From assembly GCA_044892505.1 (NCBI GenBank), contig CM097883.1, positions 147,994,001 through 148,058,000 on the forward strand: a DNA stretch of 64,000 bases. The letters run 5' to 3'. A program made the position numbers and the translations under genes. The stretch is from Schmidtea nova. Lineage: Eukaryota. The notes beneath the pieces were generated by a model. The model made no database searches and had not been told where the DNA came from. It was given only the letters and a program-made list of their open reading frames with translations. Of the stretch, positions 1 to 59,459 are shown in pieces. Numbering within the stretch: position 1 is the first letter of the stretch; the number at the start of each line of letters is the position of its first letter.

Positions 1-731
1 ACATTTTTATGGTGATGGACATAATTTTATATAATTTTGAAAAAATATTTTGTGTTGAAAATATTTTATGTAAATTAATTTTTTAACTATTTGGAAAATG
101 GATTATATTTTCATTTATATTTTAATATTTTAATTCAATAAATAATAATAATAATAAAATAAATAAATAAATAATACAGGTTGTTTAAATAAATTAAAAA
201 TAAATAAATTACTGTTTGTTTAAATAAATTATATTTCTGACCTACAAGGTCAGAAAAATGAAATAATATCTCAAGGTTAAAAAATAATTTTGAAAACAAT
301 TCTGTTTTGAAAACAACTCTATTTTCAAAAACAATTTCAATCAACTCAAGAGGCAAAATAACAATCATTATTGACAGATTAAGTGCCTTAAAATTTAGTA
401 TATAAACTGACTGATTTTTCAGTTAAATCACCCAAAAATCAAAAGCTTTAAAGAAGAGTTGTAAATTCAATAAATTGATATTACAACATAATTTGAGCAT
501 ACCTATTTACACATCCGAGCTCAGGAAGCTGCAAATATTCACACACACACACACGCATCTATACATATATAAAATATAAGTTGGAATTGATACATATATT
601 TTGTGAGGTAATTGTTTAATTTTTATCAAAATTGTAAATTGTTATAATTTAAATAAAGTTTAGAAAAGAACCAGTCTTTGACTTATTTATTTATATAAGT
701 TCATCAAGTTGAGATTCTTGGAACCTCAACA
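1..731 (+). repeat. 5' LTR of element 1 (partial)
   Basis: Identical by eye to 12009-12741 except one AC unit ((AC)7 vs (AC)8). Ends ...CTCAACA immediately before the PBS. Confidence 0.95.
399..424 (+). promoter_or_regulatory. Candidate LTR core promoter (TATA + TCAGTT initiator-like)
   Basis: TATATAAA at 399-406 and TCAGTT at 419-424; spacing is slightly short. AATAAA at 469-474. Confidence 0.3.
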
Positions 732-733
732 TT

Positions 734-751
734 TGGTGCCGCGAACCGGGA
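734..751 (+). promoter_or_regulatory. Primer-binding site, tRNA-His-like
   Basis: TGGTGCCGCGAACCGGGA lies 2 nt after the LTR end and is complementary to a tRNA 3' end ...TCCCGGTTCGCGGCACCA. The ...CGGCA-CCA acceptor resembles metazoan tRNA-His. Confidence 0.8.
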
Positions 752-992
752 CTAAATTAAATTTAAACAAATTAATTGAATTCGGGGGATAAGAATTGCG
801 ATCAGAGGATTATATTAATTGATATCGGGATTTATTTATATAAAATTATTGGACACGTATTTTTAAACGAAAACTAATCCGGATACTGAGATAATTTTTG
901 ATAACGGACAATAAAGAAATTTTTACGGAATAATAAAAATTGATAATAATCTAGAGATAGCGCATAATCTAAGAAATCGAATAGTATATAGA

Positions 993-3900: not shown

Positions 3901-6900
3901 AAGAAGTCTTTGTATGTAATAATATAGCAAGGACGATACTCCGACCGTCATTTACACCAGACACAGTTATAATAACACCACAAGAGTGTGAAAATGCATT
4001 TCAATCAAAGAAGATAAAAATACATGAAATCGAACTAAAAGCACAGGTAGGTGCACGAGTAAAACAACGAGTAGATGTAATTGGATGGTCTTCACAGGGA
4101 GGATATTGTCAAGGTGGGGAATATAGAATATGGGGACACATTATAAAAAACGCCGTTGTAAGACGAGAATACATCGTCGAACTTAGACAGTTTAAAGCAT
4201 CATTTGACAGCATAACACAAAAAATGATGACACACCCTTTCTGTACATCAAAAGAAGTAAGTTGTGACACTGGTGAATCAATAGTAATATATAAAGTTGA
4301 TCCATACGATTGTCCTCTAACAATATTGAAGTCGCTAAAATTTACAGCAATTAAAGGCAAACAGTTTACAAATACAGAATCAACTAAAGTAAGAGATAGA
4401 AAACGAAAGACAATTGTAATCCAAGAAAAAGATACACCCACAATATATATGACAGAATCTTCAGGAGAAGCATTGAGATTTCTTAGTAAAGGGGAAATTA
4501 TAAAATGTGGAAAGTCAATAATACAAACCAATTATAAAGGTCTATATTTGAGTAAAGATGAAATAAAAGATGCGAAAATAAAAGTAAACAAATACGATAT
4601 TAAACTTTCATCATATTTCAATAATAAGATTGACTATTTTTATCACCATCAATTAATGCAATTAGATAGGGTATATCAAGAAACAATAATAAATGATTGT
4701 AAGCTTAACCGAGAAATTTTAAGATCGAAAATGGCATTAGCAATTACAAATCCGGATCTAATGGCCCCAATGCTCTTTTCAGAAAGAGGCGCATTTGCTA
4801 GAGTTGTTGGCGAAGTAATCCAAACATTTCAATGTAAACCAGTCAGTGTATCATTAGCTACGAACAAACAATGTACAAACGAATTACCAGTTATTTATAA
4901 GGGAGAGAAAGTCTACTTACAACCCATAACAAGGATACTAACAGATAAAAACTACATACCTAAGAGAATAGATAAATGTACAAACTTATTAGACCCTCTA
5001 TATAAATTAGATGACGAAACATGGATAACGATGTCAGATAAGAAGGTAGCAATAAGACCACTAAATCTAGAAATGACAGAACTAGATAAGAAACTAGAAT
5101 TCATAGAAGTAAATGATTTTGATAACAATGGACTTTATACAAAGGAAGACATAGAAAGTGCAAGAAAACATTTATTATTTCCGAACGAAAAGGAGAAAGT
5201 ACTAACAATAATAGCAAGCAAAGTTATCGAGAATAGCCACGATGGACAATACAATTTCGACATCTTGTTATCAAAAGAACACTTCAAGAAGGTAGTTTAT
5301 CGAGTTCTATATAGTATATGGGGATACTTTGCAATCCTAGGAAATACCTTCTCAACCACACTCGGCATCTATTATTCTATTGCACTACTAAAAATGATAT
5401 GTTCATCACTAGTATCATTTAGACAGCTGAGACAAGTATTTGGCAATTCATACAAAATGCTAGCTTGTTTATGTCCATTTATTGCAAAATATTTAATAAC
5501 TGCAAAACATGATAAAGATATCAAAAGAATAATAAGAAAGACAACAGAAGAAAGACTAATAGATGACAATACCAATCAAGAAAATAATCATACGGAAGAA
5601 TTCGATCACACGGAACCAACGCAAGGAGGACCATATATTATACACATGGATCAATTAAGAAATCTAGGCAATGAGATCGAAACTAATATACCTCTAAAAG
5701 ATTATAACACCCACACGCTGATAAGAAAACCAAAGAAAGTATACGGATGTTATGGACTAGAAGAAAGAGAAGAAGCAAACGACATGAGGCCAAGAACCCA
5801 AATAACGATAAACAATCAAATACTAAATGCGCTAGTAGATACCGGTGCCGCTGCATCATTGATAGAAGAAGATCTACTAACAGAAAAACAACTTCAAAAT
5901 ATCACATCAACAAATGATGAATTATTGTCACTTTCTTCACACACTATACCTATTAAAGGAAACGTAAAACTTACAGTATACTTTGAAAATCAGACCATAG
6001 ATCATGTGTTCCGAGTAGCAGATATATGTCAAAGGAAATGTATTCTAGGCATAGATATTCTGAAAAAATTAAAGAATCATGTAATTGATTTATCAGATAA
6101 CAAAATAAAAAGAAAGATAAACAAAAGTTATAAAAAGCCGATAGAAGTAAGCGCGATAGAAGAATTTGAACTAGAATATGAAAGTGATAATATTATACCT
6201 ATAAAAGTTAATATTCAAAGTGATGACATATTTATTTTCGAACCCAACACAACGATTACAGAAAATAGAAATATAATGCTAACCGACGAATGTGTAATAC
6301 CCAAAAAGGGTATAATCCCAATTCGAATTGCCAATTTCGAAAACAGAAAAATAAAAATTCATAAAGGTACAAAATTAGGTCAATTATCAAAATATAAATA
6401 TGATATTGGCGAGATAAGTATAGAAAGTAACAACCTTGAAGATACAATTAAACCGAATGACATTAAATTTTACGAAAAGACTACAATAAATAACGATTAT
6501 CTGGACAAGGTTCAACAAAAATTATTGCAGATATTAATTGATAAATATAATGATGTTTTTGCAAAGCACGAATTTGATCTAGGAGACACGGATATCATTA
6601 AACATGTAATTGATACAGGGAACGCTAGACCAATAAAACAACGACCCTATGTAACACCATATAAACTTCGAGAAGAAATAAAGAGACAAATAAATGAACT
6701 AAAAGGGGCAGGAGTAATTAGACAAAGTTTCTCACAGTGGGCTTCACCAATAGTACCAGTTAGAAAGAAAGATGGCGAAATTAGAATGTGTATCGATTAT
6801 AGAAAATTAAACGAAGTAACAACAAAAGACTCATATCCATTTCCAAAGGCACAAGAACAATACGATAAACTAAGAGGCGCTAAATATTTTACGGTCATAG

Positions 6901-6956
6901 ATGCTAATAAAGGATATATGCAAATCCAAATAGAAGAAGGAGATATTGAAAAATAA
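993..6956 (+). CDS. Polyprotein, part 1: Gag (capsid-like, CCHC knuckle) - UBL - Bcl-2-like - signal peptide - class III-type glycoprotein - TM - aspartic protease - dUTPase-like spacer - N-half of RT
   Basis: CFNCQKYGHMAKAC knuckle; LREIASEM, LFRTGINQDRVV and PWIQSKGGW motifs; hydrophobic LSIPIIIMMITILLNLIKGSTG followed by MIAYDC; LVDTGA protease motif; RT motifs WASPIVPVRKKDGEIRMCIDYRKLN. Ends at an in-frame TAA. Confidence 0.93.
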   Translation: MANNNENNDNLRNIWQNRDADNVNRNILIKTLPVEPYKGEPEKFDDFFDEIAQYAEACGWTQDELKRRIPLYLKGYALQAYNNLECKGRNWEDLVNNLRGEIVIERDLQKINVQKFRNRYQGSRETIGEYVYNLTELARKAFGVGEHTAKLIEDQFWSGIQKYLYKALIMVEYEDLNELVQKARRIEAIQRDRSNATIDAVELESKIGKSEATDKDDNIPWEEMKQLYLNFVKNRKRMGPNASRNQSPENNKRSNSPRGRPNSRNDNYVEFTRNDKNNYFEYNKDNERRLNYNRDNYFDNNRYNKNSRFNDNRNYRDNFNTRNNSDRNRYDDNRYNFGSNRDNLRGRRPSPNQQMYNRDRRPSPFNNDGRDKINFRGEIKCFNCQKYGHMAKACRNIRVESPNRVQFKKEPEVKQINGMEVKEPNNEIEMLRDELQEFKTKYERLIERNKINVLINEFKTFTNEVKMDNDELREQRERDEELLAEIDRHNILKQELDESLKKYPIDDNEVLRILNKIHVEGINLENLRNLIPLLARRQKETKLFELEIEIKEMLRCYSEFVRKNEKLHEPLEITLETKDGDTPKIIIHKQGVHTCTKVKKIKQIARANWYSEIGINDEIVLYFYGIKMQSEDFLMDYGINSIDNNIITVSVKVGLESMLDEWIANDRRISKSDASQKNDVTYEAEDFETIKQDGDESQESEITNKFTSKRMAEKLREIASEMSTNSEDTDIIIDLIKTVYPRLYSNANISSLADNIGNRIKLITTDIKNLVTEDVNEKAVLKILFRTGINQDRVVTALAYLIYRSEYVLIKNAEKQVNRVAEQILMKLKPEVIPWIQSKGGWQILYDKTVPIETPTIEIDTQEKEVERRLKKIINKTMMKSGKSNHGLSIPIIIMMITILLNLIKGSTGMIAYDCQNPKWGQKYSLLDVENCPEANPTTLSTTEPKIFYVYQESDFIHTEAKECVIKYSEEVFVCNNIARTILRPSFTPDTVIITPQECENAFQSKKIKIHEIELKAQVGARVKQRVDVIGWSSQGGYCQGGEYRIWGHIIKNAVVRREYIVELRQFKASFDSITQKMMTHPFCTSKEVSCDTGESIVIYKVDPYDCPLTILKSLKFTAIKGKQFTNTESTKVRDRKRKTIVIQEKDTPTIYMTESSGEALRFLSKGEIIKCGKSIIQTNYKGLYLSKDEIKDAKIKVNKYDIKLSSYFNNKIDYFYHHQLMQLDRVYQETIINDCKLNREILRSKMALAITNPDLMAPMLFSERGAFARVVGEVIQTFQCKPVSVSLATNKQCTNELPVIYKGEKVYLQPITRILTDKNYIPKRIDKCTNLLDPLYKLDDETWITMSDKKVAIRPLNLEMTELDKKLEFIEVNDFDNNGLYTKEDIESARKHLLFPNEKEKVLTIIASKVIENSHDGQYNFDILLSKEHFKKVVYRVLYSIWGYFAILGNTFSTTLGIYYSIALLKMICSSLVSFRQLRQVFGNSYKMLACLCPFIAKYLITAKHDKDIKRIIRKTTEERLIDDNTNQENNHTEEFDHTEPTQGGPYIIHMDQLRNLGNEIETNIPLKDYNTHTLIRKPKKVYGCYGLEEREEANDMRPRTQITINNQILNALVDTGAAASLIEEDLLTEKQLQNITSTNDELLSLSSHTIPIKGNVKLTVYFENQTIDHVFRVADICQRKCILGIDILKKLKNHVIDLSDNKIKRKINKSYKKPIEVSAIEEFELEYESDNIIPIKVNIQSDDIFIFEPNTTITENRNIMLTDECVIPKKGIIPIRIANFENRKIKIHKGTKLGQLSKYKYDIGEISIESNNLEDTIKPNDIKFYEKTTINNDYLDKVQQKLLQILIDKYNDVFAKHEFDLGDTDIIKHVIDTGNARPIKQRPYVTPYKLREEIKRQINELKGAGVIRQSFSQWASPIVPVRKKDGEIRMCIDYRKLNEVTTKDSYPFPKAQEQYDKLRGAKYFTVIDANKGYMQIQIEEGDIEK

Positions 6957-9869
6957 GCATTTGTGATAGAAAATGAGCTATACGAATTCTTAAGACTACC
7001 ATTCGGAATGGTAAATGCACCAGCAACATTTCAAAGGCTAATGAATACGATATTGATAGATGTACAACATTGCGCAGTATATATGGATGATGTACTGATA
7101 GCATCAAAAACATTCGAGGAACATCTAGAAGATATAAAAAATGTATTAGAAAGATTTAGAAAATCAAAAATTAAAATTAAACCTACAAAATGTAAATGGG
7201 CAGAACCTTCAGCCTTATATTTAGGACATATTGTCTCAGTAGAAGGCATAATCCCAAACCCAGACAAAATAAAAACAGTACAACAATTTCCAATACCAAA
7301 ATCAGTTAAGGAAGTACAAGGATTTTTAGGTTTAACAGGGTATTATCGAAAATTTATCGAAAATTATGCTAAAATAGCAGCTCCATTAATTGAATTAACA
7401 AAAGGAGTAAAAACAAAGGAAGATGGGAGAAAAACACAGATAGTCCAGAAACTAAATAAAATTAACGAAAAACCACAAAAGTTGTGGACTCAAAGACAAC
7501 AAAATTCCTTTGAGCAACTGAAAGAAAAATTAGTGACCGCACCAATACTTAGATACCCTGATTTTACTAAACAATTTATCATTATGACAGATGCCAGCGG
7601 GAAAGCCGTAGGAGCAGTCTTAGGCCAAGAAGAGGAAAAAGGAAAAGACTACGTCATCGCATATGCAAGCAAAACGTTAAAGAATGCTGAAATCAGATAT
7701 TCGACGATAGAGAAAGAATGTTATGCTATTATGTTTGCGTTAAAACAGTTCAAGCAATATATATACGGATCAGAAGTAATAATAAGAACCGATCACAAAC
7801 CATTAGAAGGGTTATGGAAGCATAAAGATACTTCAAGTAGATTATTAAAATGGGCAATGAAGATTCAAGATATGCAAATTAAAATTATCTATAAACCTGG
7901 CAGAATAAATAAGAATGCAGATGCATTATCTCGTATACCAGAATTAAGTGCTCTAGAAGTATTCGCAATAGTTGCAGAAAACCCTATACATATATATGAA
8001 GAACAAATGAACGATCCTGATTTATCAAAAATAAGAGATGAAATTAAAAAAGGAAAAAACCATAAATATAAAATCAATAAAAATTTACTGATAATAGAAA
8101 GCACGACAGGGAATAAACTCATTATAGTCCCTCAAAAATTAAGACAAATACTTTTATTACAATACCATGATGGAGCACTAGGAGGTCACTTATCAGCCAG
8201 AAAAACAGAAAATAGACTATTACAAAAATATTACTGGGAAAATTTAAAAAATGATGTTAAAGCGTGGTGTAAAGCATGTACTATATGTGCTACTAGAAGA
8301 AATACAGGTACTAAAACAAGAGCTAAAACAAGAGCTAAAACAAGCACTCCTATGAAACTATGTGCCATGGACTTTTTATGCAAATTACCCACTACAATAA
8401 ACGGTAATAAACACATATTGGTTTTTAGTGATTATTTCACAAAGTGGGCAGAAGCTTTTCCAACAAAAGATGAAACAGCGGAAACAGTAGCTAAGCTATT
8501 AACGGAAAAAATTATATTTAAGTTAGGCACACCAAGAAAATTACTCACCGATAAAGGAAGAAATTTTATGAGCGAAACAATTTCTAGAATAGCTAATATT
8601 TTTAATATACAAAAAATAAATACAACAGCATACCACCCTCAAACAGATGGATTAGTAGAAAGATTTAATGGTACATTATTGAATAGACTATCAGTTTTTG
8701 TAAATAAAAATCAAAACGACTGGGATGAATATATAAACCAATGTACTTATATCCACAACATCACACCAAATGAAACAACTGGATATTCACCATACTATTT
8801 GATGTACTTAAGGGAACCAATAATGCCAATTGACACGGTCTTTGAACCAAAAATATCACAATATTTAGACACCCCAGATTATGTTACGCTAATGCAAGAA
8901 AGATTACAAGAAGTATATAAAATAACTAATCTAAAAGTTAAATTTCGTCAAGAACAATACAAGGATGAATACGATAAAACGGCTAAACCTCATAATTTTA
9001 AAATAGGCGACAAAATTAGATTAATGTCACCACAAGTAGGCAAGGGTAAGACAACTAAACTAGCACGACCATTTAAAGGCCCATACGAAGTCATGAAAGT
9101 GATCAATGAAAATTTACATATCCAAAAAAATAAGAACGAGGATCCAACTGTTGTGCACGTCAATAGATGCAAACTTGCAGAAGACGAACTACCAATAATA
9201 AAACCACATAAATACAACTTAAGATCACAACCACAAAGTATATTAATGATATCAATAATCACCCTCATTATATTTAATACAGCTAATGCAAATATAATTA
9301 ATAACAAGGATATAAAAATAATAAGAGAACATGATAAAATCACAATTATTAATCTAAATAGGAACCCAATGATTCAATCATACTTAAAATTTATTAATAA
9401 TTCAAAAGTTATACAAAAGACGAAAAATAACGAAAAGAAATATATCGACAGATACACAAATTTGAAACCCGACACTAATTATTATTTCTGTACAGAAACA
9501 CCAATGTGGCATTTGAAAAAGACCCAATGTGAAATAATAAAAACAAAATCTCAGAAAATATACAAAAGGAAAAAGCAGAGAAGATCCCAAACGGAAAAAC
9601 CTAGAATATTAAATAGAATACCATTAAATAAACCTGCAATAACAATAAATAACTGGGAAGAATTTCAAAATCTGTATCACCCCCAACCAAAACCTTTATA
9701 TAAAACATGGCCAATGTATGTAATAATTTTTAGCATAATATTATTAATAACTATAACAATGTGGATAGGAACGCAAACTTATAGAAAATATAAGTGGAAG
9801 AGGCAGCGTTATCGGAGTTCTCTCATTAGATATATACCTGGAAGGTGCACACTATCTACCCTTTGTTAA
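6957..9869 (+). CDS. Polyprotein, part 2 (same frame): C-half of RT, RNase H, integrase, then signal peptide - FN3-like - TM extension
   Basis: EK*AFV...LPFGMVNAPATFQ and YMDD; RNase H MTDASG / EKEC / TDHKPL; integrase H-H-C-C (GHLS...CTIC), AMDF, TDKG, GLVERFN and FKGPYEV; hydrophobic segments at 9240-9290 and 9714-9770. Confidence 0.93.
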   Translation, partial: AFVIENELYEFLRLPFGMVNAPATFQRLMNTILIDVQHCAVYMDDVLIASKTFEEHLEDIKNVLERFRKSKIKIKPTKCKWAEPSALYLGHIVSVEGIIPNPDKIKTVQQFPIPKSVKEVQGFLGLTGYYRKFIENYAKIAAPLIELTKGVKTKEDGRKTQIVQKLNKINEKPQKLWTQRQQNSFEQLKEKLVTAPILRYPDFTKQFIIMTDASGKAVGAVLGQEEEKGKDYVIAYASKTLKNAEIRYSTIEKECYAIMFALKQFKQYIYGSEVIIRTDHKPLEGLWKHKDTSSRLLKWAMKIQDMQIKIIYKPGRINKNADALSRIPELSALEVFAIVAENPIHIYEEQMNDPDLSKIRDEIKKGKNHKYKINKNLLIIESTTGNKLIIVPQKLRQILLLQYHDGALGGHLSARKTENRLLQKYYWENLKNDVKAWCKACTICATRRNTGTKTRAKTRAKTSTPMKLCAMDFLCKLPTTINGNKHILVFSDYFTKWAEAFPTKDETAETVAKLLTEKIIFKLGTPRKLLTDKGRNFMSETISRIANIFNIQKINTTAYHPQTDGLVERFNGTLLNRLSVFVNKNQNDWDEYINQCTYIHNITPNETTGYSPYYLMYLREPIMPIDTVFEPKISQYLDTPDYVTLMQERLQEVYKITNLKVKFRQEQYKDEYDKTAKPHNFKIGDKIRLMSPQVGKGKTTKLARPFKGPYEVMKVINENLHIQKNKNEDPTVVHVNRCKLAEDELPIIKPHKYNLRSQPQSILMISIITLIIFNTANANIINNKDIKIIREHDKITIINLNRNPMIQSYLKFINNSKVIQKTKNNEKKYIDRYTNLKPDTNYYFCTETPMWHLKKTQCEIIKTKSQKIYKRKKQRRSQTEKPRILNRIPLNKPAITINNWEEFQNLYHPQPKPLYKTWPMYVIIFSIILLITITMWIGTQTYRKYKWKRQRYRSSLIRYIPGRCTLSTLC

Positions 9870-10049
9870 AATAAAAAACCCAATCATAAATTGTAAAATA
9901 GCCCATCCAATCATATTTCAGAAATCATTTTACCCAATAAAATTATATCAAAATCATCTATATATGTGTCCAATAATTTATAAAATTTACCCATATCTGA
10001 CAATATATTATATTGCATCTAAGGAATAGATCAACCAACAATCCAACCA

Positions 10050-11663
10050 ATGAACCAATCAGCCTCAAACAATCAGTCAAGCTCAACAATATCCACATAC
10101 ACATACACATGCACCACATATAAACACCACACAGCATTTTATAAGACCATTCAAAATAGCATTCACACAGATGAGGAAGAAATTACACCAAGGAAATTCC
10201 CGAATCAGGTATGCATACCAAATGTATTAAAAGTAGATATAGAAGAAAGAGAAATGATCATCGTAAAATTCAACTCATCAAGAAGATTTAAATTAAAAGA
10301 AATCATAGGTAGTTTTGAAGAAAGTCAAAATGCAGATAGAGATGCAAGAGAAGGCATCAAAATTCCCCACAGAATAGTAATTCATACTACCAAAACAACA
10401 ATATCACTAAAACACAACGATAAAGTATTAGCGATTGCAAACAATACATCAATAATATTTAAAACCCTTAGAGAACGTAAATTGTCTACAGAATTCAACA
10501 ATATCATTATACAACTACATAATATGCCATGTGTAATTGCAATTGAAATATTATATGTACCCACAATAGAAAATCCCTTTAAAAAATTAGAACCCATTTG
10601 GTCAGACATTAGAATGGATAACATATTCGTAGAAAAGAAAATACCTTTCACGAAGCAAACACTAACACCCGAAGAAAGACAAGGAAAAATAACTTTTGTA
10701 GACATAAAATCGGTACAAGATTTTAATAAAGAGTACAGACCAGTAGATGTCTGTATTAGAAACTACAAAGGAGACACACTATTTCAAAGTAAAATTACCC
10801 CAAGAGAAAAAATACAAAGATTCTTTCCAGAAATCACAATGGCTACCAGAGAAAATAGTATAGGCAATATGGACGAATTCATAGCATTGTTAGAAATCAA
10901 GAAACACCTCTATGGAAAAATAATAGTAGGTTTCGACATTATGAAAAAACTGAAAAGTGTCACAATAGACCTGGATGATATTATGGGAGTAAGAGAACTC
11001 TCGAACACCGAATATATGAAAACATTCGTCAATAATGTCCCGGAAGACAGGATTAAATTATCAAATTTAGCATTTCAGATTATTATGAATACAAATGATC
11101 TGAAGAGAAACAAAAAACTTAATGATATATTATTAAAACCAGAACCTTTTAATGTTGGTGAAACTTGCTTAATAGTTCGCTTACTATATTTACTCACAGA
11201 AACCGAATGGGAAAAAGCTGTTGACAATGGAATGAAAACAATAACAAAGAAAACAATTAAAGAAAATTGTTCCACATCGGACGGAAATAAGAAACCAACA
11301 TTTGAAATCATAACAATAGATGAAGATAACTCTAATTTGGAAGTAGAAGGAATTGAGCCAATGGAAGAAGATGAATTAGGACCAGAACCTCAAATCACAA
11401 TAGAAGAACCCATGCCAGAAATCACTGTCACATATAATAGCAATGTAAAGAAAACAACAGTGATTGTAGATGGGAATGAAATACACATATATTATGTTGA
11501 AAAAGGTTATGAGGACATAACCTTGACGCCCCAGGGAGTAGTGTTAGATACAGGGAAGATAGTCGAAAATTTTGAGATAGATGAAAATTATACAATAGGG
11601 GCAAATAAGTACAGACTAAATGTGTATGTGGATAACAACAATCAGAACCCAGGCCAACAATGA
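10050..11663 (+). CDS. Accessory ORF of element 1 (537 aa) with a REX4/ISG20-like DEDDh exonuclease fold and degenerate catalytic residues
   Basis: Intact long ORF between pol and the 3' LTR. FVDIKSV...VCIRNYKGDTLFQSKITPREKIQRFFPEITMAT...HLYGKIIVGFDIMKKLKSV...VRELS...LSNLAFQII...FNVGETCLIVRLLY follows the REX4-type pattern. Confidence 0.65.
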   Translation: MNQSASNNQSSSTISTYTYTCTTYKHHTAFYKTIQNSIHTDEEEITPRKFPNQVCIPNVLKVDIEEREMIIVKFNSSRRFKLKEIIGSFEESQNADRDAREGIKIPHRIVIHTTKTTISLKHNDKVLAIANNTSIIFKTLRERKLSTEFNNIIIQLHNMPCVIAIEILYVPTIENPFKKLEPIWSDIRMDNIFVEKKIPFTKQTLTPEERQGKITFVDIKSVQDFNKEYRPVDVCIRNYKGDTLFQSKITPREKIQRFFPEITMATRENSIGNMDEFIALLEIKKHLYGKIIVGFDIMKKLKSVTIDLDDIMGVRELSNTEYMKTFVNNVPEDRIKLSNLAFQIIMNTNDLKRNKKLNDILLKPEPFNVGETCLIVRLLYLLTETEWEKAVDNGMKTITKKTIKENCSTSDGNKKPTFEIITIDEDNSNLEVEGIEPMEEDELGPEPQITIEEPMPEITVTYNSNVKKTTVIVDGNEIHIYYVEKGYEDITLTPQGVVLDTGKIVENFEIDENYTIGANKYRLNVYVDNNNQNPGQQ

Positions 11664-12741
11664 TAATAATTTGACTTGATGAACTACATTTGATTGTGAT
11701 AACATTTTCTTTTATTTTATTGGTTTTGATAATTGATGATATGAATAATTGATTTTATTTGTTGATGTATTTTTTTAAAATAGATAGACAATGGAAAATA
11801 TCAAATTCAATGACATTATGATTTTAGTGATTTTATATGATAATATTTTATGTGATGACTATCTGGCAATTTTTATTTTTATGGGATAATTTTATTTTGT
11901 TTCTGTTAATAAAATATTGTTGAAAATTAATTTTTGTAATGACAATTTATCATCATGACAATTTATAATTTGACAATTTATCATTTGTGATATTGCGAAC
12001 ATTTATTGACATTTTTATGGTGATGGACATAATTTTATATAATTTTGAAAAAATATTTTGTGTTGAAAATATTTTATGTAAATTAATTTTTTAACTATTT
12101 GGAAAATGGATTATATTTTCATTTATATTTTAATATTTTAATTCAATAAATAATAATAATAATAAAATAAATAAATAAATAATACAGGTTGTTTAAATAA
12201 ATTAAAAATAAATAAATTACTGTTTGTTTAAATAAATTATATTTCTGACCTACAAGGTCAGAAAAATGAAATAATATCTCAAGGTTAAAAAATAATTTTG
12301 AAAACAATTCTGTTTTGAAAACAACTCTATTTTCAAAAACAATTTCAATCAACTCAAGAGGCAAAATAACAATCATTATTGACAGATTAAGTGCCTTAAA
12401 ATTTAGTATATAAACTGACTGATTTTTCAGTTAAATCACCCAAAAATCAAAAGCTTTAAAGAAGAGTTGTAAATTCAATAAATTGATATTACAACATAAT
12501 TTGAGCATACCTATTTACACATCCGAGCTCAGGAAGCTGCAAATATTCACACACACACACACACGCATCTATACATATATAAAATATAAGTTGGAATTGA
12601 TACATATATTTTGTGAGGTAATTGTTTAATTTTTATCAAAATTGTAAATTGTTATAATTTAAATAAAGTTTAGAAAAGAACCAGTCTTTGACTTATTTAT
12701 TTATATAAGTTCATCAAGTTGAGATTCTTGGAACCTCAACA
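11542..12741 (+). repeat. 3' LTR of element 1 (start inferred)
   Basis: 12009-12741 matches the 5' LTR. The start is inferred from purine run AGGGAGTAG (11533-11541) followed by TGTT, which complements the AACA end; it cannot be confirmed because the 5' LTR start lies outside the window. Confidence 0.75.
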
Positions 12742-13429
12742 TCTGTATTAAATTAAAATATAGATATTTATAAAAGTTTTGTTTAAAAGAAGAGAATAAG
12801 AGAACGAATTAAAATTTAAAACGCAGAAAAGTTATAACAGAGAAGAATTTCAACATTTCAACAAGAAGAATTTCAACATTTCAACAAGCAGAATTTTAAC
12901 ATTTTGACAACAAGCAAAATTTTAACCAGCGAAAGAAGATCTCTTTTAAATAAATGTTTATTGCATATTTCATCTTATTAACTTTTGTTTTAGGGGTATG
13001 GGCAATGAAAGTTGCAACTCCGATAATATGCAATGGTAGAATTATTATGAGAAATAAAGTGGAGGAAGAACTTAAAAATTTTAATAAATTGATTGATTTC
13101 TATCAAAAATATTTAAATTGAAAAAAAAACAATTGATGAATGAGTTAAAGCTGTCGTATAAACAATTTGAAGATATTTAGATCAAACCGACTGCTGTTAT
13201 AAATACATTAGAAGTATTTAATTCAATTTGTATAAAAATATTCGTATTCTCACAATATTTGCGAATTTGCCAGTATCAGCTTATAAGAATTATTATTAGT
13301 ATTCTCTCAAAAAAATATTTTTAAACGCATTATTATCATTGTTAAACAATGATTTATTAGAAGTTTTTTCAAGTCAGCAATATATATTATAAATTTGATT
13401 ATTGTATTTATAAAGCGCTACTGTCTGTA

Positions 13430-48273: not shown

Positions 48274-48510
48274 CTAGCACCACCGGTTCAAATCTTGTTA
48301 AATCTTTTGCGGTATTTAATACCATTTTATTGTAAACGCTTTTAAAATATTCTTTTGTACACATCATAAATTCAAATATAAATATTACTTGAACACTTCC
48401 TTTTTATTTATTTATATTTATTTATTTATATATCTTTTCTTTTGGACTCAGACCTGTGTTAAGGTCGAGATATCCCCAAATTATTTATATACTTAACGAT
48501 CTTAACATTT

Positions 48511-48528
48511 TAGTGAGCCCGACGTGAT
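48511..48528 (+). promoter_or_regulatory. Degenerate PBS, tRNA-Trp-like (element 2)
   Basis: TAGTGAGCCCGACGTGAT, two mismatches to TGGTGACCCCGACGTGAT, following an LTR-like end ...CTTAACA at 48507. Confidence 0.7.
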
Positions 48529-48598
48529 AAAACTCCGGGGGATAGAACAAAGTTGAGCTAAGAAAGTGTTGAATTTTGAATAGGGGTAATATAATTAA

Positions 48599-50121
48599 TA
48601 TGGCGCAAAATCAAGCAGAAACACAGGCACCCGCAGGGGAATTTTTTCGACATCCAACTATTCCAATTTTACCTTACAATAGGAACCCAAGGGATTTTCC
48701 AGAATTCATGTCGGAATATTTTCAACTTGCTCGAGCTTTAGGCTTACCAGAAGCCGTAATGATATTGAGACTACCACTATATTTAAAAGGGCTAGCACGA
48801 GAGCAGTACAATGATATAATAGCAGCAAATAATCCACGAGCATGGAATGATTTAAGGGTGGCTTTGACAAACCGTATTTTACCCGGCGATGCTACGCGCA
48901 TATTGCGACAACAATTCTATAATAAAAAGCAAAACCCAGAGGAGTACGTAGAGGAATACGCTTACCAAATAATGATGTTAGCAGAGCGTGCATTTGGGGC
49001 TAGAGCAGGATGGAACGATATCACCAGAGCTCTAGTAAAAGATCAATTATGGGCAGGATTCACCCCAGCGATGAGAAATGCGTTAAGTTTGTATGTAGGA
49101 GATGCATACGAGGAGCTTGTACAAAAAGCAATTTTAATTGAAAGTAGTCTTGAAAAATCAACTAGTTTATTAGTAAATAAAAGAAAAACAGACACGGAAT
49201 GTTTCAATTGCCATAAAAGAGGGCATATAGCTAAAGAGTTCAGGAGTAAGAAACCTATTAACAATAACAATTTCAAGCAAGTTACATTGCACAAATTGCG
49301 GTAGAAATAACCACGAGACACGAGATTGCAGATGTTCCGACTTGAGTTGCTAAAAATGTAAACTTAGAGGTCATGTTGCGTCAGAATGTAGAGCGCGCAG
49401 TCCTGCATGAACAAATAAATATAAAATGAACCATAAAGATAGTAATAATAATAGTAAAGGGGAAAACCGAAATACTGGGTTTAATATAATAAAGAGTGAT
49501 GAGATAAATTCCACAGGGAAATTAAAATGTCATAAATGTGGTAAATTTGGACATATACAACGATCTTGTCCGTTAAATAATAGTAATACTGGCTCTAAAA
49601 ATAATGATAACAGACAACAACGATCCGTGTGTTTAGTTAATCAGGAACAAAATTTAACTTATCTACAACAGTTAGAACTCGAATTGCAAGAGGAGAAAAA
49701 TCGATTAGCACGGATAACTCTGCAAAGTGATAATAGCATACATACTGTTTTCCGGGATAACGGCGAGGAACCCGACTCGGATAATAGTGAGGGAGAGGGT
49801 TGTCTACAGACAGCATCCGAACAAGTATTATCTAATGATAGCGAATCCGAACTCAGTATGGGGAAAATACTAGAGGAATTCGATGAGACAACTAGAAAAG
49901 GGTTGAACAAAGGAAAAAATCTTGTACAGAGATGTAAAGAACTGGCGAACTCCAGCCAAGAGTCCCAGAAAAAATTAAAAAGGAAACTAGAGGAAATAGC
50001 ATGCAGCAAGATGCGAGAGAGGGAAATCGATGACGCATTGCAAATTATAGCATTAACCCAAGGAGAGAAATGCTATCACTCACTGCTATCGAGAATTAGG
50101 AGGAAATTAGGAGCCAAATAG
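48599..50121 (+). pseudogene. gag of element 2 (frameshifted)
   Basis: ILRLPLYLKGLAREQYN parallels element 1 KRRIPLYLKGYALQAYN; CCHC knuckles. Confidence 0.85.
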
Positions 50122-52030
50122 CGGTATGAGAATATTATAGAGGACACTGAGGTAACAGCATTGATGCCACCAGAGCAAGAGTGGAGATTCAAAATAAACC
50201 CCAAATTGAGAGTAGAACCGTTAATACAAAAATTAACTGAACGGTTCAGAGGACCGACATGAGAAGTTTAATTATGTAGTGCTCCGCTTCAAAGATCGGA
50301 GACGCTAATAAAAAGTGGTATTTTGCCCGGAATACAAAATATTGTGAACGTAAAAATAGCTAAAGTAGAAGTCCCGGTAGTGGACGCTAATAACATATTC
50401 ATTATCACAGAGATGGATATGGAACAGCTGCTGGAAACAAGGGCAATTGCCATGAAACTGGGACGTGAAATAATGCAAAGTCCCCGAAATCAAAAGAATA
50501 TTAGACAAATGCTAGACTGGATGATTACATTACGTATACCAACAGAGACATTATATGATATTGCATATTTGATCCATCCACTAATGAAGGAAGTAACACG
50601 ATATCAGCCACAGTTAAAGATATTGATGACCAAACATGGACAAGCAATTCGGCATCAGCCCAACAAGCAAGGTCCGATAAATATAGATATCAGGGTGCCC
50701 GCCAAGAATCCCCAGGTACACAGACATTCAGTCAATAATTTATTAACAAAAACAAAGCATGACCTCGCATGCAGAAACATTTGGTAGGATCTTCCCGCAA
50801 GCGAGCGTCCCCTACCTCTGGAAAAGGAAAAAGCTGGTATGGTATTTTATGGAGTTGTCCGTATTTGCTTGGTCAATGAGGAGATCATATAGATCGGTTA
50901 GTTCATTGTCTGTTTTTATCATTCCATCGAATTTTTTTAATTCTTGATTGAGAGCATCTATATTATCTTTTTGGCAGTGGATTTTCATTATCTGATGTGA
51001 TTTTTCAAATATTTCTTTGAGTGCTTCTTTTTTCTCACAAATAATGCTTATTTGCTTTATAATCTCTTTCGTAGTGATGTTAGCTTTTTGAGGTTTTATT
51101 TAAATGTTGCTGTTTTCATTTGATTGATTTGTGAAGGATTCAGAGGGGATCTGATTTTTATTTTCTTTAGGAGTACTGATTGTTGGTATTTCTGTGATGA
51201 TTTTGAATTTGTCTGAATCTTCGTAGGTTTCCATTTGATCATGAGGAATTATTTGTTCTGTATCTGGATTTTCTATAACCCTTTCTGCAAGGAGGGTTAT
51301 AGTCTTTTGGAATTTGTAAGATTTAGCTATTCCAATGATATTTCTATGAATGTAGTATTGGAAAAAATTGGCAATTCTAAAAGTTGAGAAATAAAATAGA
51401 AGAAGTTGTAGACTATCTGTTCCTAATAATGATTCAGGGAAGTCAAGTCGATGATGACGAGTACTTAGTAGATGCGGGATGCCTACCACACGAAACTAAT
51501 ATAGCCACAATAATTCCTTTAACACCACCTAGAGAGCAGTGGTCAGTATTGAGATTGCCAGGCACAGCAGAGTAGGATCAACCGAACGTAGTGACAGAAC
51601 CGAGAAAAATGCCTGTAGACCTGGATGAGGAGGGAAATCATTAGGGAATTAAAGCCTAGTCTACATATTGAACCAGAACCGAGTATAAACATAGAAAATG
51701 TTACTCAAGCTATTAAAGGAATCATGCACAAGATCCCTAAAACAGTTGCTGAAAAAGAAATATCAGATACGGTGGAAAGATTCTTTCATGAGGGACTAAC
51801 CAGAGGAAAAGTCGTTATAATACTTGTCATGTTCATCAAAAGATTACTTGCTAATGTAGGTAGCAATCGAAAACGACTTGACCCAGATTTGGAACATATA
51901 ATACCAATGATAGAATGGTATTTTGGGGCCTTGGATGACAGAAAACGAGTTCTGGCAGAAACCCATCAACAAACAACCTCGATACATATTAAATGATAAC
52001 TCACTGAACGTCGAAAATCTCGGATCCGAA

Positions 52031-53880
52031 GGTTTGGCTAATATAATGTTAATGTTATTAATGGGAATGTGAATAATTAAGCAAGTAAACCCGTTAACTG
52101 CTTACGATTGTGGAAATCCAACATTGAATGGAATATATTCTTTGGTAGACACAATAGAATGCACAGAGGCATATCCAGACAGAGTTCAGTTAGGAGAGAA
52201 ACTTGAGTATCATTTATACTAAGAAACTGACTTTTATCGAACAAGAGTGAGGGAATGTAGTCTACAGAGAGCAGAATTCGAATATTAGTGTGGAAGACAT
52301 AGTTATTCTGCATTTTTGGCCGACAACCTCATTCCTCAAACAGTAACAGTTCAGCCAGAGGACTGTGAAGACGCTTTCAGGACAGGTAAATTGAAAATAG
52401 ACGCAGAAGTGTCGATTATAGCTGAAGTGGGCAAAGCACTAGCTATAACAATTACTAGAGGAGGGATTATCAAATCTGCTGGTACATGCGAGGACAGAAA
52501 GAAATTGAGAGGATCAGATATTATTGATAGCGTTGTCACTATTCAAGATTACACGATATAATTGCGAGAGTATGAAGGGACATTTGATGTTGGAACGGGG
52601 AAAATGATGGTTCACCCGGAATGTAATGAGAAATATGGGCAGTGTAAAACAGACAAAGCAACACTTCTATATCAAGCTAAAAGAGATTTCTGCGAGCTTC
52701 GGTTATTAAAGAAAATTACATTTAATGAAATCAATGGCACCAAATTCTCAAACAAAGATAAATCCGGAAAAATCTGGGGAGATAAAGTGATGAATCAGCT
52801 TAGCAAACCAACAATTAGAGAAAAAGATATGCCGGTAGTGTTAGTATCAGCAGATGCTACTGACGCCATACGATTGGTTAGAAAATCACAAAATATGAAA
52901 TGTAACACTTAACCTATCAAACGAATTACAAAGGGATATACTTATCTGTTAAATATATACAAGCAGCAGACAAAATTCATTGGAGTGATATTAAAATTAC
53001 AAATTATGTCAATTATAAGATCGATTATCTATATCACGATCTACAGAAACAGATACAGGATATTTATCAAGAGGTGATTTTAAATGACTGCAAGCTGAAT
53101 CGAGAAATAATACGAAATAGGTTAGCTATTTTAATAGCGAACCCAGATCTGGTAACACCAATGCTCATGGAGGACGGAACGTTTGGACGTATTCTGGGAG
53201 AAGCCAAATACAGTTATCAATGTACTCCAGTCGAAGTTGAATTGACCCGACATAGCCAATGTACGTTAGAACTACCAGTAATGTATGGTACGCAATTGAG
53301 GTTTGTGATGCCAGTAACACACCAACTGTTACTGGAAGGCACAAACCCACAACCAGCTATTTGTAAACCAGCAATATCACCACTTTATAAAATCCAAATC
53401 AATGGATATCGCTATCAGACAGAAAACCACCAGCTAAGCCAATGGAGATTTTACAAGCAGCAAAGTTAGAAAACAAAATCGAATCACAAACATTAGACCA
53501 AATGGCTAAAGGTGCATTATATACAACATAATATTTTGAAGAAGCCAGAAAGGCAATAACATTTCCTCAGGTAAGAGACCGAGGAATTACCGAAATAATA
53601 AATAAAATATACCAAACGATTGATGGAAAACCAAATTACAACCTCGTACTCGGTCCAGAACATTACAAAACAGCAGCAAAGAATGTAATGAAAAGAATTT
53701 GTGGGAGATTCACTAGTTTTGGCATCTTTGTTGCAGGATGCTCAGGTGTATATGCTATCCTCGTAATTGTAAAAGTCATATTCTCTCAATTAATATCAAT
53801 GTATAGCATTTTTAAAATAGGGGGTTGGTCATGGAATTTAATACTGGGACTATGTCCCGTTTGCACAAAATTCACAGTTT
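52031..53880 (+). pseudogene. Class III-type envelope glycoprotein of element 2 (disrupted)
   Basis: Signal-peptide-like LANIMLMLLMGM, then TAYDCGNP; CKLNREIIRNRLAILIANPDLVTPML...GRILGE...QC.PVEV...CTLELPV is colinear with element 1; C-terminal TM segments. Confidence 0.85.
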
Positions 53881-54459
53881 TTAGACATCACAAAGGGGAA
53901 ATCAAAAAGATGAAAATAAAAGAGTTAATAAAGCATGAGGTAGTACGCGAAATCATAGATAATTACAATCATCGGGACGATGATAATTCCGACGGGGGAG
54001 GTAACATAGGGGTACTTTCTACTCAAAATAATATTCATAACAAAACACACACTAAAATACCGAAACGTAAACGAACGCAAAACAGATACCTACCTCCTTA
54101 TGATTCAGAATTCAATTTGTTACCCAAAATTGAGCAGATTAACGAAAATATAGACAATACATCAGTATCCACATTATTCGAGGATAGACAAGATAGTTAT
54201 AGGGCCATAAACAAAAGTAGATTTCCTACAACATTTACAACAATTAGAAGCCCACCTAAATACGTAGAGTTACCCAACATACCAAATATATCAATGAATC
54301 TAAATCCAACATACCCATTTAATGAACTTGAACAACTAAGAGACAGATTTGACACAGAACCTACTAATAGTGAAGCTGAGAGAAGAGAAGCTCAAAATTT
54401 CAGTGTAAATTTACTGGAACTGACAACTGTGTTAATGATATCTAACAAAGGATCTACCA

Positions 54460-57425
54460 AAAAACCCACTATTAATATTAAAATCAATAGACATAATGTG
54501 TATGCTATCATTGACTCTGGTTTAGACATAACCACTGTAGAGGCAAATTTGTTAAACGAGGCAGAGCTGACAAGCATCCAACCGGCCCAAACTAATGCGA
54601 CAGAAGCAAATGGGCAAGCAATCAATATCATAGGAAGATTAGACTGTGTCATGAAATTATGTGACCAGGAATTCAGACATGACATAAATGTTAACAGACA
54701 ATGTCCAGTCAAATGTATTTTAGGTATGGACGTCCTTCAAAAATTAAAAGGAGTAGTCTTCGACTGTGCCACAGGTTCACTAGTACGTGTAGTGGGAAAT
54801 AGGAAAAGAGTTTACAATGAAGATGTCGTATATTTAGATAAAATAACAATAATTCCGCCGAGAACTGAGAAGGTATGTTTTGTAGCTACATACGAAAGTG
54901 TAAAGGGAGATATAATATTCGAGCCAGGCAAAGATTTTTTGGTTAAGTATAAAACCCCGGTCGCACCATCAGTAGCTACTGTTAGAAATGCTCAGATTCC
55001 AGTATTAATAACCAATTGGGATCAACATCCATTAAAATTATACCCAGAAACCAAAATAGGGAGAGTATTGGTACCTGGCAACAATCCAAAAGAAAATGAG
55101 ACCATATTATCCATTCAGGAAAAACAAGACCTCGACATAGAATATTATGGAGCACCTGTATGCAACAGTACTATGTTGACACGTAAGAAAAATATACAAG
55201 TAAATATGTTACTCAGAAAATACGATACAATTTTTGCCAAACACGAGTACGATTTAGGCAAAACCAACATTTTAGAACATGAAATCCCGTTGAAGCATGA
55301 TTCGAAGCACATTAAAATGCATCCTTATAGAATCCCACAAACGTTAGAGAAAGTGGTTGATACACAAGTGAAGTTAATATTGAAATATGATATTATCAGA
55401 CCTAGTAAGTCGCCATATCAGTCACCAATGATAGTGGTTGCGAAAAAAGATGGGTCGGTACGTTTAGGCAACGATTACCGTAGAGTAAACGAGGAGACAA
55501 TAAAGGATAGTCATCCATTGACATTGTTGGATAAGGTCTATGATAAAATGAAAAATGCGAGAATATTTTTGATACTTGATGCACAAAAGGGGTTTTACCA
55601 AATACCCATGAAAGAAAGCTCCATACCAATAACAGGATTCTCTACTAGTACAGGTCATTGTGAATACGTAGTTATGCCATTTGGATTAACAGGCGTTCCC
55701 GCCACTTATCAAAGAGCGATGAATTTTTTTGTTAATGGACGCACATCACGCCATTGTATATATCGACGATGTCATCATTTTTTCGGAAAGCTTAGAAAAG
55801 CATATGGAACATCTGAAAGATGTGTTTAAACGATTTATGATGGCAAACCTCAAAATTAAACCTACTAAGTGTAAATGGGCGGAAGCTGAAGTAACTTGTG
55901 TAGGACATGTAATCTCACAAGATTGTGTCAAACCAGATCCGGCAAATAACGAAAAAGTCAGAAACTTTCTGATACCTAAGAATGTGAAACAACTAAAAGG
56001 ATTTTTAGGACTAGCAGGATATTATCGCAAGTTTTTTCGAAACTTTTTGGCAATAGCTTTTCCATTAACTAACTTGGAAAAGAAAGGTGTCAAATTCGAG
56101 TGGAAACCTGAACACCAAGAAGCGTTCGATAAATTAAAAGAATTACTATTACAACCACCAATCTTACGATTTCTTGATTTTGGGAAACAGTTCATAGTTA
56201 TGACGGATGCTAGCACGCATGGGATAGGTGCGGTGCTAGGACAAAAAGATGATTTAGGCGGTGAGTATGTGATTGCATATGCCAGCAGGGGTCTAAAGCC
56301 ACACGAAAGGAACTATGCTGTTATAGAACTAGAAGCATTAGCCTTGGTATTCGCTGTGGAGAAATTTAGACATTACCTATAGTGAAGAAAAATTCTGATT
56401 TAGACTGATCATAGACCATTACAATGGTTATTAAAACATTGCGAAGATGCGACGAAATTAGTCCATTGGGCATTAAAGTTACAGCTATATGATATCGATA
56501 TAATCTACAGAAAAGGCAAGGCAAATGGAAATGTGGACGCTTTATCCAGGGTGGAACAGATTCCCGAAACTAATCAAATTCAAGAAGAACGATTGGAGGG
56601 AACTATATTTGTATTAACCAGGTAGGCCAACTCATTATCCGAACTGATCGAAGCTCAAAAGAGTGACGAAGAAATCAACGTAGTTCGCCAAGCACTGGAA
56701 TCCAAATCGGTCCCCCATGAATTCATTAAATTCTGGGATAAGAACAAAGAAAAGTTCGTTCTAGAGGAAGGACTTGGAAAGTACTTGGAAACCAAAGATA
56801 ATGTGATTATGGTACCTAAAAAGTTTAGAGAAGCTCTGATGCTACAATATCACGATGGTGACTTGGGTGGTCATCTATCAGTGAGACATACCTTGTCAAA
56901 ATTGAAAAACAAATATTTCTGGCCTGACATGGTGAAAGATGTGAAATCTTGGTGTCAATCATGCAAAATTTGCAACACTAGAAGGAACACTTGGAAAAAG
57001 CTACACGTTCCGTTAAAACCTATGCCAGTACCATCTACCCCCATGGAAATGACAGCCATGGGAAATAAATTCATTATAGTCTTTTGTGACTATTTAACTA
57101 AATGGCCGGAAGCCTTTTCTATGCCTAACCATAAGGCAGATACAATCGCTAGAATTTTTGTTGAACAAATAGTTTTCAGGTATGGTGTTCCAACCAAGTT
57201 ACTCACCGACAGAGGGAGAGACTTTATGAGTAACCTCTTATAAAGGAATGAACGAGTACTTTGGAATACTTAAACTTAATACAACGCCATACCATCCACA
57301 GACTGACGGTCTCGTGGAAAGGTTTAATGGGACATTGGCCAACATGCTTGCTTTGTACGTTAACTCCGGACAAACGGATTTGGACATACACATCCCATCC
57401 TGTCTTTTCGCATATAGAAATGCGG
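54460..57425 (+). pseudogene. pol (PR-RT-RH-IN) of element 2, disrupted
   Basis: IIDSG, PFGLTGVPATYQR, YIDD, MTDAS and ELEA motifs; integrase lacks the segment with the first catalytic Asp (MEMTAM|GNKF) and ends at LFAYRNA. Confidence 0.9.
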
Positions 57426-59459
57426 TTGTAGATTTTATTTTTTTAAATGGAGAAACTCTTGTTCGAATTATTATGTTTTATTATACACAACTCCAGTGCC
57501 ATGCAAAATAACGATTTTCACTCAATAACAATAAATTACTCAAAAAATGCATTACTTAATTAAATTTTATTATAAAAATATCTATAACCTGATATAATAT
57601 AAAATTTCCTAGTGCGATTTCCAGCCGTCGCATAAGTTAATATGTCGACATAAAAAGTATAACGACCCAGTGTCAAGAAAAATAAAATCAAAAACAAAAA
57701 TCAAGATAATCTTAGAAAAAGATTAGAAAAATTTTATTTTTTTAATAAATAAATAGACACTTAAAACACAAAAACGAATGTCACAATCGAAAAATGCCAA
57801 AAAATATTCCATCAAGAAAAATAAATTGTTAAATTCCAGGGGGTAAATTAATAAAGCTTCGATTCTAAAGTAAAAATGTAATTTGTGAGACGACAAAATC
57901 TTACGTTTTCTATCGTGTTCATCGAATGGCCCTTGTCGTGAGCTTCTTCCAAATAGCCAGCCTGATACTAACACTTAAATCATCAATGAAATATTTTAAA
58001 AGGGAAAAATTAAGTTTTCATACCATTAGATTTTTGTGAATCCGTGGGAAATCTACTATCTAAAAATAGCCACTTGAGAATCAATAATTGTAATATGGTG
58101 ATTTGAATTCCCATAATATGAATTGACCAATCGTAGTCCTTTAATTTTTCATGCTCGCTTATATAGATTTTCTTTTCTTCGGGGAACGCAGATGATTCTG
58201 ATGAAAAGGCGATTTCTTGGTTTGAAATTTAACCTAAAATTTGAAAATAAAAATAAAATTCATAATTTTGGAGATGTCTATAAGATTAAATTAACATGTT
58301 ATTTGGAGAATTTATACCATTGCCGTTACTAAGGGCTCGGCAAAGTTTTAAAATTTAAATGTTGAATTTTGAGTATAAATCTTAAATTAATTATGAAAAG
58401 TAAGATAGGCATTAGGAAATAAGATATATGTATAGTATAGTTGGACTTGTACCTTCTAATTATAAAATTCACAAAGTATGAAATTAACAACTACATCTAT
58501 GGATGTAATAGCGGTCGAATAATACCGAGCATATACGCTTCTAAACAAAAATACGTATACCGAATTGAGTAGTGACATTATACTGATTTTGATTGGAAAT
58601 AAAATACGATTACCGGTATGATAAAATAAAGTTTGTGTGATTGTTATAGACTGTTTAATTACTAGAATAATTGCGTTTTGAGTGCTATGTGTTAATTTTA
58701 GAAAGTGAATCCAGATCAAAGGTTAGATGAACTCTTACGCAGATCCGCCAAATCTGCCTGACACGATTGACGGGAGGATATACGTCTTGCCGATCTCGAT
58801 GCCGAAAAGTTAGTGGGCGCGGAGGCATTACAGATAATGACCTCGTGGATGGAAATATTTCGAGCCCGTTGCCATGAGATGGAGGCAAACTCAAGCGTCA
58901 AAATCAGATGTTGATGCAACAAGCAGTGGAAGACGCCATGCGGCTGTGAGCCTGCGGAGTCTCCATTCGGGAGCATGAGGTCACCTTCACAAGATTGCAG
59001 ATAGAAAGTGGCATAATTGCGGCCGTCGTACCAAAGATGAGCATGCCAGCCCAGGAACTGTTTCCGGTGAGGGACGAGGAGGAAATAGTGGCACCTCATC
59101 AGTCGGAAAAACCCAAGCGCTGGAAAACTTGCAAAGGCGTGAGAGCACGACAAAAGTGCCGACAAGAAGCGCGTTTGTTGGGACAACTGCGGAAGACCAC
59201 AATCGAATCGTTAGGCGTAACAATCCTATGACTCTATGATTTGTTATATTATTTTAGCAATTATAATTTCATTTGTGCTTCATAACTTTCTTGTACGCAC
59301 TTAATAAAATTTTCTTACTTATTAATTGTTTTCTTTGTCATAAATTGTATGATGAGAGTGACTGATTAAATAATTGCCGTAAAGATGATAAATAACGAAC
59401 TCCAAAAATCGATCTTACCCGCACAAACTGGAACAGGATAGCGTAAGCTCAGCAAAGGG

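Follow-up and report, generated by a model that had tools for sequence, protein, structure and literature searches.

A decayed Ty3/Gypsy element and its sister families

We analyzed a 64,000-nt stretch of the Schmidtea nova genome (GCA_044892505.1, contig CM097883.1:147,994,001-148,058,000; hereafter the window, whose positions serve as coordinates), with a focus on a long terminal repeat (LTR) retrotransposon at 48511..57425, referred to as element 2. A further retrotransposon at the start of the window, element 1, was used for comparison. In element 2, gag, a ubiquitin-like (UBL) region, a Bcl-2-like domain, a hydrophobic signal with an AYDC motif, an envelope (Env) ectodomain, a transmembrane (TM) helix, protease (PR), reverse transcriptase (RT), RNase H (RH) and integrase (IN) are collinear between 48600 and 57427 (Table 1). 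An earlier reading made from the sequence alone (the sequence-only reading) had claimed that this order is recoverable through the stops, and it was right. Pfam matches in the open pieces of a three-frame translation comprise gag, CCHC, PF24664 Env (E 4.5e-29), PR, RT, RH and IN, and the proteins of open sister families cover all of element 2 in tblastn with the order kept. Pfam detected neither UBL nor Bcl-2 on single sequences of the element 2 copy or of the element-2 group; both were established in that group via profiles, and the UBL also via the predicted fold of a sister family. The PR-RT-RH-IN order, Gypsy-type RT and tRNA primer-binding site (PBS) of element 2, together with the paired LTRs in both sister copies checked, are those of Ty3/Gypsy (Metaviridae) elements.

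The genome was searched with a 170-aa piece of Env, and the best 150 of 2606 candidates were scored. Among these were at least 16 other matches to element 2 with identities of 77-91%, whose open frames did not exceed 872 aa; next came two families, one with 73% identity and a frame of 3448 aa, the other with 69% and 3549 aa. Ten sibling loci were fetched, with DNA identity over Env of 88-93% in six and 75-76% in four. Family representatives are natural copies as fetched: F3448 and F3549 (open), F3401, F3393 and F3232 (intermediate), the element-1 group and the giants. In the open sister families, Gag through beyond integrase is a single open reading frame (ORF) of 3448-3550 aa, found in many near-identical copies, with the order Gag, four knuckles, a helical domain plus UBL twice, Bcl-2-like domain, signal, gB-type Env, TM, PR, RT, RH and IN. 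The copies checked measure 14.9 and 15.6 kb, and their LTR pairs are young, being identical at 100% (1147 nt) and 99.9% (1026 nt). Pol of the sister families is 73-79% identical to that of element 2 or to each other. Fourteen Env cysteines are kept in all 14 full-length rows, as are 10 of 10 in the half taken from element 2. Hydrophobic segments flank Env on both sides, and a further one lies at the C-terminus; in both sister families a strong TM is found in each of two places, between Env and PR and close to the C-terminus. A segment after the integrase in the same ORF, with a second signal-like stretch, an ectodomain and a TM helix (window ~9160-9869; L034 aa 1520-1841), is common to element 1, both sister families and several ENA relatives.

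The window copy of element 2 is dead, a fossil with approximately 16 stops and 8 frame changes relative to its nearest open relative, and its 3' LTR and second ORF are absent. A short deletion takes out the first catalytic Asp of the integrase, and the copy stops inside that domain at 57427. Another deletion, of ~290 nt at 51632, has removed the AT-hook-like motif described below and the first Bcl-2 helix; all six close sibling loci have 260-980 nt extra at this position, and in the three that were read the first Bcl-2 helix lies in this extra stretch together with an RGRP motif, which is QGRP in one of them. A foreign insert of 645 nt sits within the second UBL; the alternative that 50790-51390 is an inversion of element 2 itself was rejected, since the segment is a foreign repeat. 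Element 2 had been credited with two knuckles and actually has four, as do both open sister families, at 49200 (last Cys lost), 49288, 49348 (stop inside) and 49528. Immediately upstream of the LTR remnant, 192-nt inverted repeats (97%; 45335-45526 and 48067-48258) flank a 2.5-kb segment. The unit is likely a non-autonomous DNA element responsible for the truncation of the 5' LTR of element 2.

Element 1 carries one knuckle, one helical+UBL pair, Bcl-2-like domain, Env, Pol and an ISG20-like second ORF, and its window copy has one stop in RT, at 6954. Its family (query window 7202-7276) gave at least 150 matches, many of them in open frames of 2992/2993 aa with identities of 99-100% or 84%, which is a pattern of recent bursts. 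The Trp-like PBS proposed for element 2 was confirmed as one for tRNA-Trp(CCA), whereas that of element 1, formerly read as His-like, corresponds to this genome's tRNA-Phe(GAA). These two primer tRNAs also form long tandem arrays, tRNA-Phe with a 240-nt unit (G000:C1:566.9 Mb) and tRNA-Trp with a unit of ~282 nt (C3:128.0 Mb; 1984 exact matches to the array pattern).

Table 1. Features of element 2, its surroundings and compared elements (window positions unless a locus is named)
Feature	Position	Strand	Basis
5' LTR remnant (3' part), ends in CA	48275..48507	+	blastn to sibling copies begins 48275; sequence
PBS for tRNA-Trp(CCA), 17/18 bases	48511..48528	+	3' end of tRNA-Trp in this genome's tRNA-Trp array
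Gag capsid region	48600..49190	+	PF03732 E 1.1e-4; 65% identity to F3549
Four CCHC knuckles, two damaged, one frame change	49200..49569	+	translation; comparison with sister families
Helical domain 1 (weakly TFIIS-N-like)	49933..50118	+	family comparison
UBL domain 1, two stops	50143..50355	+	family comparison
Helical domain 2	50404..50664	+	48% identity to F3549; sister-family predicted helical bundle, predicted local distance difference test (pLDDT) >85 throughout
UBL domain 2, interrupted by insert, without C-terminal diglycine	50665..51530	+	
Foreign insert, piece of unrelated repeat family	50730..51374	-	absent from siblings; 51 matches among best 40 of 183 candidates
Bcl-2-like domain, first helix deleted, frame change ahead of BH2-like end	51633..51965	+	hhalign to element-1 group
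Hydrophobic internal signal sequence, one stop	52020..52099	+	sequence; corresponds to pre-AYDC segment of sister families
Env ectodomain, gB-type / PF24664	52100..53720	+	Pfam; conserved cysteines
Env TM helix	53724..53780	+	hydropathy 2.36
Aspartic protease (DSG)	54459..54752	+	PF13975 E 6.1e-8
RT (YIDD), one frame change	55440..55911	+	PF00078
RNase H with stops	56176..56530	+	PF17917/PF17919
Integrase, HHCC finger + core, cut off	56812..57427	+	Pfam; sister-family comparison
Element 1 (comparison)	1..12745	+	LTRs 1-735 and 12009-12745, PBS tRNA-Phe
Second ORF	window 10023-11663; L032:5582-7729; L034:5713-7791; L070:6185-7633; L072:5950-6942; L078:5527-6990		

Domains ahead of Env and the second ORF

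The single UBL-like domain noted before Bcl-2 is present, and there are in fact two in element 2, each after a helical domain; two such pairs occur in the element-2 and intermediate groups, and one in the element-1 group. Profile comparison shows the UBL domains of the element-1 and element-2 groups to be homologous, with a common UBL signature. A beta-grasp fold is present in the profiles and in the predicted fold of the sister family; prediction from a single sequence of the UBL region gave a pLDDT of 37. In alignments, the UBLs of the element-2 group end without a C-terminal diglycine, and they are likely to be binding modules, not conjugated tags. A ubiquitin cleavage signal of the kind that we take pestiviruses to use was considered and rejected, because the diglycine is missing.

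No meaningful match to the helical domain was found in Pfam or among PDB sequences, and fold searches with helical domain and UBL together returned match lists saturated by UBL. By eye, it resembles what we take to be the TFIIS-N motif, without what are presumably its usual IG and Trp hallmarks. In hhalign comparisons with seven TFIIS N-terminal domains (TNDs) of this genome, a test chosen post hoc, the probability was 25.7% and then 6.5% with a deeper alignment, and scores exceeded those of 100 out of 100 block shuffles in both runs. A scan of the genome with PF08711 (TFIIS-N) gave no match in any long element ORF. Short ORFs with PF08711 occur in tandem clusters (G000:C1:216.2 Mb, C1:28.8 Mb and C2:284 Mb), the largest having ~30 copies that repeat every 1.2 kb. 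An RGRP motif, which we take to be AT-hook-like, follows the last UBL and precedes Bcl-2/Env in four of seven N-terminal halves checked in this genome (L033 aa 1043, L031 aa 919, L039 aa 746, L131 aa 1599) and in 7 of 11 outside proteins.

For the Bcl-2-like domain, the profile of the element-2 group (9 rows) matches the element-1 group with an hhalign probability of 84.5% (E 6.9e-6, 118 columns) and the intermediate group with a probability of 92.3%. Bcl-2 family members account for 52 of the 55 listed PDB matches of this profile, and a joint profile of 19 rows matches Bcl-xL at E 6.7e-8, with homology spanning BH1-BH2. In a tree of 31 rows, all 17 element rows, which include three outside proteins, fall into one clade (95/91) against 14 host-type rows. 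Eight outside proteins span the stretch up to Env: six have UBL, two have Bcl-2 (P0302, P0355) and two have neither (P0009, P0010); a ninth, P0236, has Bcl-2 and ends ahead of Env. Bcl-2 is thus less widespread than in-frame Env and the helical+UBL pair, and has been either lost repeatedly or confined to some branches.

The second ORF, after pol, encodes a putative ISG20L2/ISG20-like DEDDh exonuclease (profile E 1.6e-13 to ISG20L2). Three of three intermediate families keep the full set of DEDDh residues, which are degenerate in the element-1 and element-2 groups.

Relatives within and beyond the genome

A FastTree analysis of RT-RH with 238 rows (240 matches minus P0123 and P0124, which had short coverage) placed the element-1 group, the element-2 group and 14 ENA proteins in a clade at 0.99; the searches for relatives had also ranked multi-RT fusion proteins high. 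RT-RH-IN trees under a site-mixture model (44 rows quick, 23 rows quick and 23 rows careful) all gave support of 100 or 100/100 to the large clade. In the careful tree this clade takes in 17 of the 23 rows at 100/100, against six outgroup rows, and holds element 2, the element-1 group, three giant rows of this genome and seven ENA proteins. Outgroups were the nearest matches to the queries, in a set without named Gypsy clade references. Element 2 groups with F3549 and F3448 at 100/100 and with the intermediate families at 95/97, while element 1 and the giants each form a long branch of their own inside the clade; RT-RH identity among the compact elements is only ~45%. An unrooted Env tree recovers the same main groups as Pol. 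Rather than lying in unrelated RT clades with no shared pre-Env fold, the two elements belong to one Pol clade and have homologous UBL and Bcl-2-like domains. The monophyly that the sequence-only reading had asked to be tested is borne out as far as that clade goes and does not extend to an exclusive pairing: holding this genome's lineages together gave approximately unbiased (AU) test p values of 0.27 without the giants and 0.10 with them, so that exclusive monophyly is neither rejected nor shown.

The same reading had proposed a distinct lineage. That a lineage is newly revealed here does not hold: the trait is old and shared, and the lineage is not new. The planarian Burro elements were described in 2019 with a Gag of two or three knuckles, Ubi2/SUMO-like and BCL2-like domains and a mononegavirus-like Env in frame between gag and pol (PMC6431247). 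Burro1-4 and GYPSM1 resemble the elements studied here in having a multi-CCHC Gag, UBL, BCL2-like domain and in-frame Env, then PR-RT-RH-IN, in one polyprotein (PMC6431247). The giants of this genome, with Gag, three knuckles, UBL, Bcl-2-like domain (profile iE 6e-9), Env, Pol, ankyrins and a MATH/TRAF ORF, are of Burro build, and element 2 sits in their Pol clade. However, Burro elements exceed 30 kb with an ORF1 of ~5000 aa (PMC6431247), compared with ~15 kb and ~3450-3550 aa in the element-2 lineage, which also differs in its two helical+UBL pairs and its ISG20-like second ORF. Unlike Burro, there was no Pfam match to ankyrin, BIR or MATH/TRAF in the sister-family Pol half, the second ORFs or two intermediate N-terminal halves. 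Given the difference in size and these missing features, we class element 2 as a compact relative and not as Burro proper.

Both lineages of the window are represented in a 2026 catalogue of six S. mediterranea GAG-ENV-POL elements (PMC13524379): by eye, Env of element 2 matches Smed_errantivirus_4 at 43 of 62 residues, and Env of element 1 matches Smed_errantivirus_3 at 49 of 67. These matches by themselves point very likely to a dugesiid planarian as the host. The Platyhelminthes GAG-ENV-POL errantiviruses in that paper are alike in domain order, gB-type Env and a size of ~15 kb. Its main text does not contain "Bcl", "ubiquitin" or "exonuclease" and gives no tRNA primer for these elements, for which Trp and Phe are assigned here. 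Our literature searches did not find the UBL/Bcl-2 cargo of compact elements or the repeated helical domain (Grohme 2018 and Lee 2026 may describe compact relatives or the helical domain), nor the AT-hook-like motif, the Trp/Phe primer assignments or the ISG20-like second ORF. Bdelloid rotifer LTR elements have an accessory DEDDy exonuclease, ORF3, after pol (PMC5408684). In contrast, the exonuclease ORF here is nearest to ISG20L2/ISG20 (DEDDh), with its catalytic residues lost in the element-1 and element-2 groups. We know of no UBL/Bcl-2 cassette in Anakin. That element carries a chuvirus-like glycoprotein, a similar class III fusogen, and belongs to BEL/Pao, not to Gypsy (PMC7642597, PMC12440569).

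Other repeats were observed in the course of this work. A search for BIR found a family without gag or RT nearby (L057:1283-9852; G000:C1:119.24-119.25 Mb) in at least 150 close copies, which comprises helical+UBL, protease, ankyrin and TM, then TRAF-type RING-MATH and BIR-RING ORFs, and is probably a non-autonomous Burro derivative. Nested in one copy is an element with a protein-primed PolB, Maverick/Polinton-like (L100:6318-9998, L101:2-2095). Within the window, 21332-25496 holds nested long inverted repeats (972 nt at 99% and 311 nt at 98%) and a 300-nt direct repeat, and the ORFs of 332 and 658 aa among them match no Pfam family. A zf-BED + DUF659 remnant of a hAT-like DNA transposon lies on the minus strand at 29793-31290.

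Origin and role of the accessory domains

We consider, with a probability of roughly 0.8, that element 2 belongs, as a dead copy, to a Ty3/Gypsy lineage of compact size (~15 kb) with an envelope gene, that this lineage shares a Pol clade with element 1 and the giants, and that the UBL and Bcl-2 of element 2 are likely ancestral; this estimate includes the following model of topology and anti-apoptosis. The internal signal would direct Env into the lumen of the endoplasmic reticulum, and the Env TM would leave PR-RT-RH-IN cytosolic and tethered to Env, with the element protease and signal peptidase releasing the parts. The Bcl-2-like domain lies ~30-60 residues ahead of the Env signal, which would anchor it in the membrane much as a tail anchor does for cellular Bcl-2 proteins and would hold Gag-UBL-Bcl-2 there. 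The domain would most likely protect the producing cell from apoptosis.

Several observations weigh against this reading. The Bcl-2 profile of the element-2 group alone reaches a best E of only 0.023 in PDB (canarypox CNPV058), its BH1 is GLTRGK, in which the NWGR Trp is missing, and there is no GGW in its BH2. The Bcl-2 tree rests on 127 columns with long branches, and six of the eight outside relatives are without the domain. Elements 1 and 2 are non-sisters in every best Pol or Env tree, the element 2 group joins ENA proteins, several without Bcl-2, at only 81/88, and the tree rows did not include a published Burro1 sequence.

One rival view bears on function only. It is a credible minority view that the Bcl-2-like domain of the element-2 group no longer controls apoptosis and is now a membrane-bound structural or signalling adaptor, as are several poxvirus Bcl-2-fold proteins, and this would be compatible with the ancestry set out above. 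The degenerate BH1 and BH2 motifs are in its favour, as is the attribution of the tested anti-apoptotic activity of Burro1 to its BIR-RING region and not to Bcl-2, which is second-hand (PMC13465017) and makes the anti-apoptotic role of Bcl-2 a tentative one. However, the domain is kept in eight of eight compact families and two of two giant N-terminal stretches of this genome, and element 2 itself retains the BH1 Gly and a basic residue after it.

With regard to origin, lineages in the same host could have exchanged the UBL/Bcl-2 region by recombination rather than inheriting it. The intermediate families do join element 1 and the giants in the Bcl-2 tree (90/95) but element 2 in Pol and Env, and relatives nested between the lineages are without Bcl-2. 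Yet Bcl-2 identity between groups is only 15-20%, so any swap would be as old as the lineages; the discordance also fits fast change of the element-2 Bcl-2 on a long branch, loss in outside lineages accounts equally well for the gaps, and the main groups are the same in Env and Pol. We therefore regard such exchange as unlikely. Independent capture of UBL and Bcl-2 by unrelated lineages is far less probable still and is largely refuted: GAG-ENV-POL elements overall are non-monophyletic (PMC13524379), but here there is a single Pol clade at 100/100, the element Bcl-2 domains are monophyletic against host-type ones, and the UBL signature, preceding helical domain and second ORF are all common to the lineages. 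Shared ancestry is thus preferred, as proposed when the architecture was first read as an old common trait and no accident of element 1.

A more detailed scenario is rather doubtful as a whole. In it, a single capture gave the ancestor of the whole Burro clade a TFIIS-N-like helical domain fused to UBL, an AT-hook, a Bcl-2 that has the Env signal as its anchor, and an ISG20-like ORF. TND-binding motifs would let the TND-like domain dock the element on transcription-elongation machinery, and the nuclease would be a catalytically dead decoy in two lineages. If true, such docking would be a targeting or anti-silencing route, and none was found for LTR elements in the literature searched, where the TFIIS N-terminal domain, retrotransposons and integrase gave no joint result.

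The build of UBL, Bcl-2 and in-frame Env is no by-product of Burro gigantism, as it is retained in elements of 12-16 kb, several of them recently amplified. The compact families offer test objects of smaller size for studying how such elements deal with cell death in the host, and they point to the helical domain and the ISG20-like ORF as leads.

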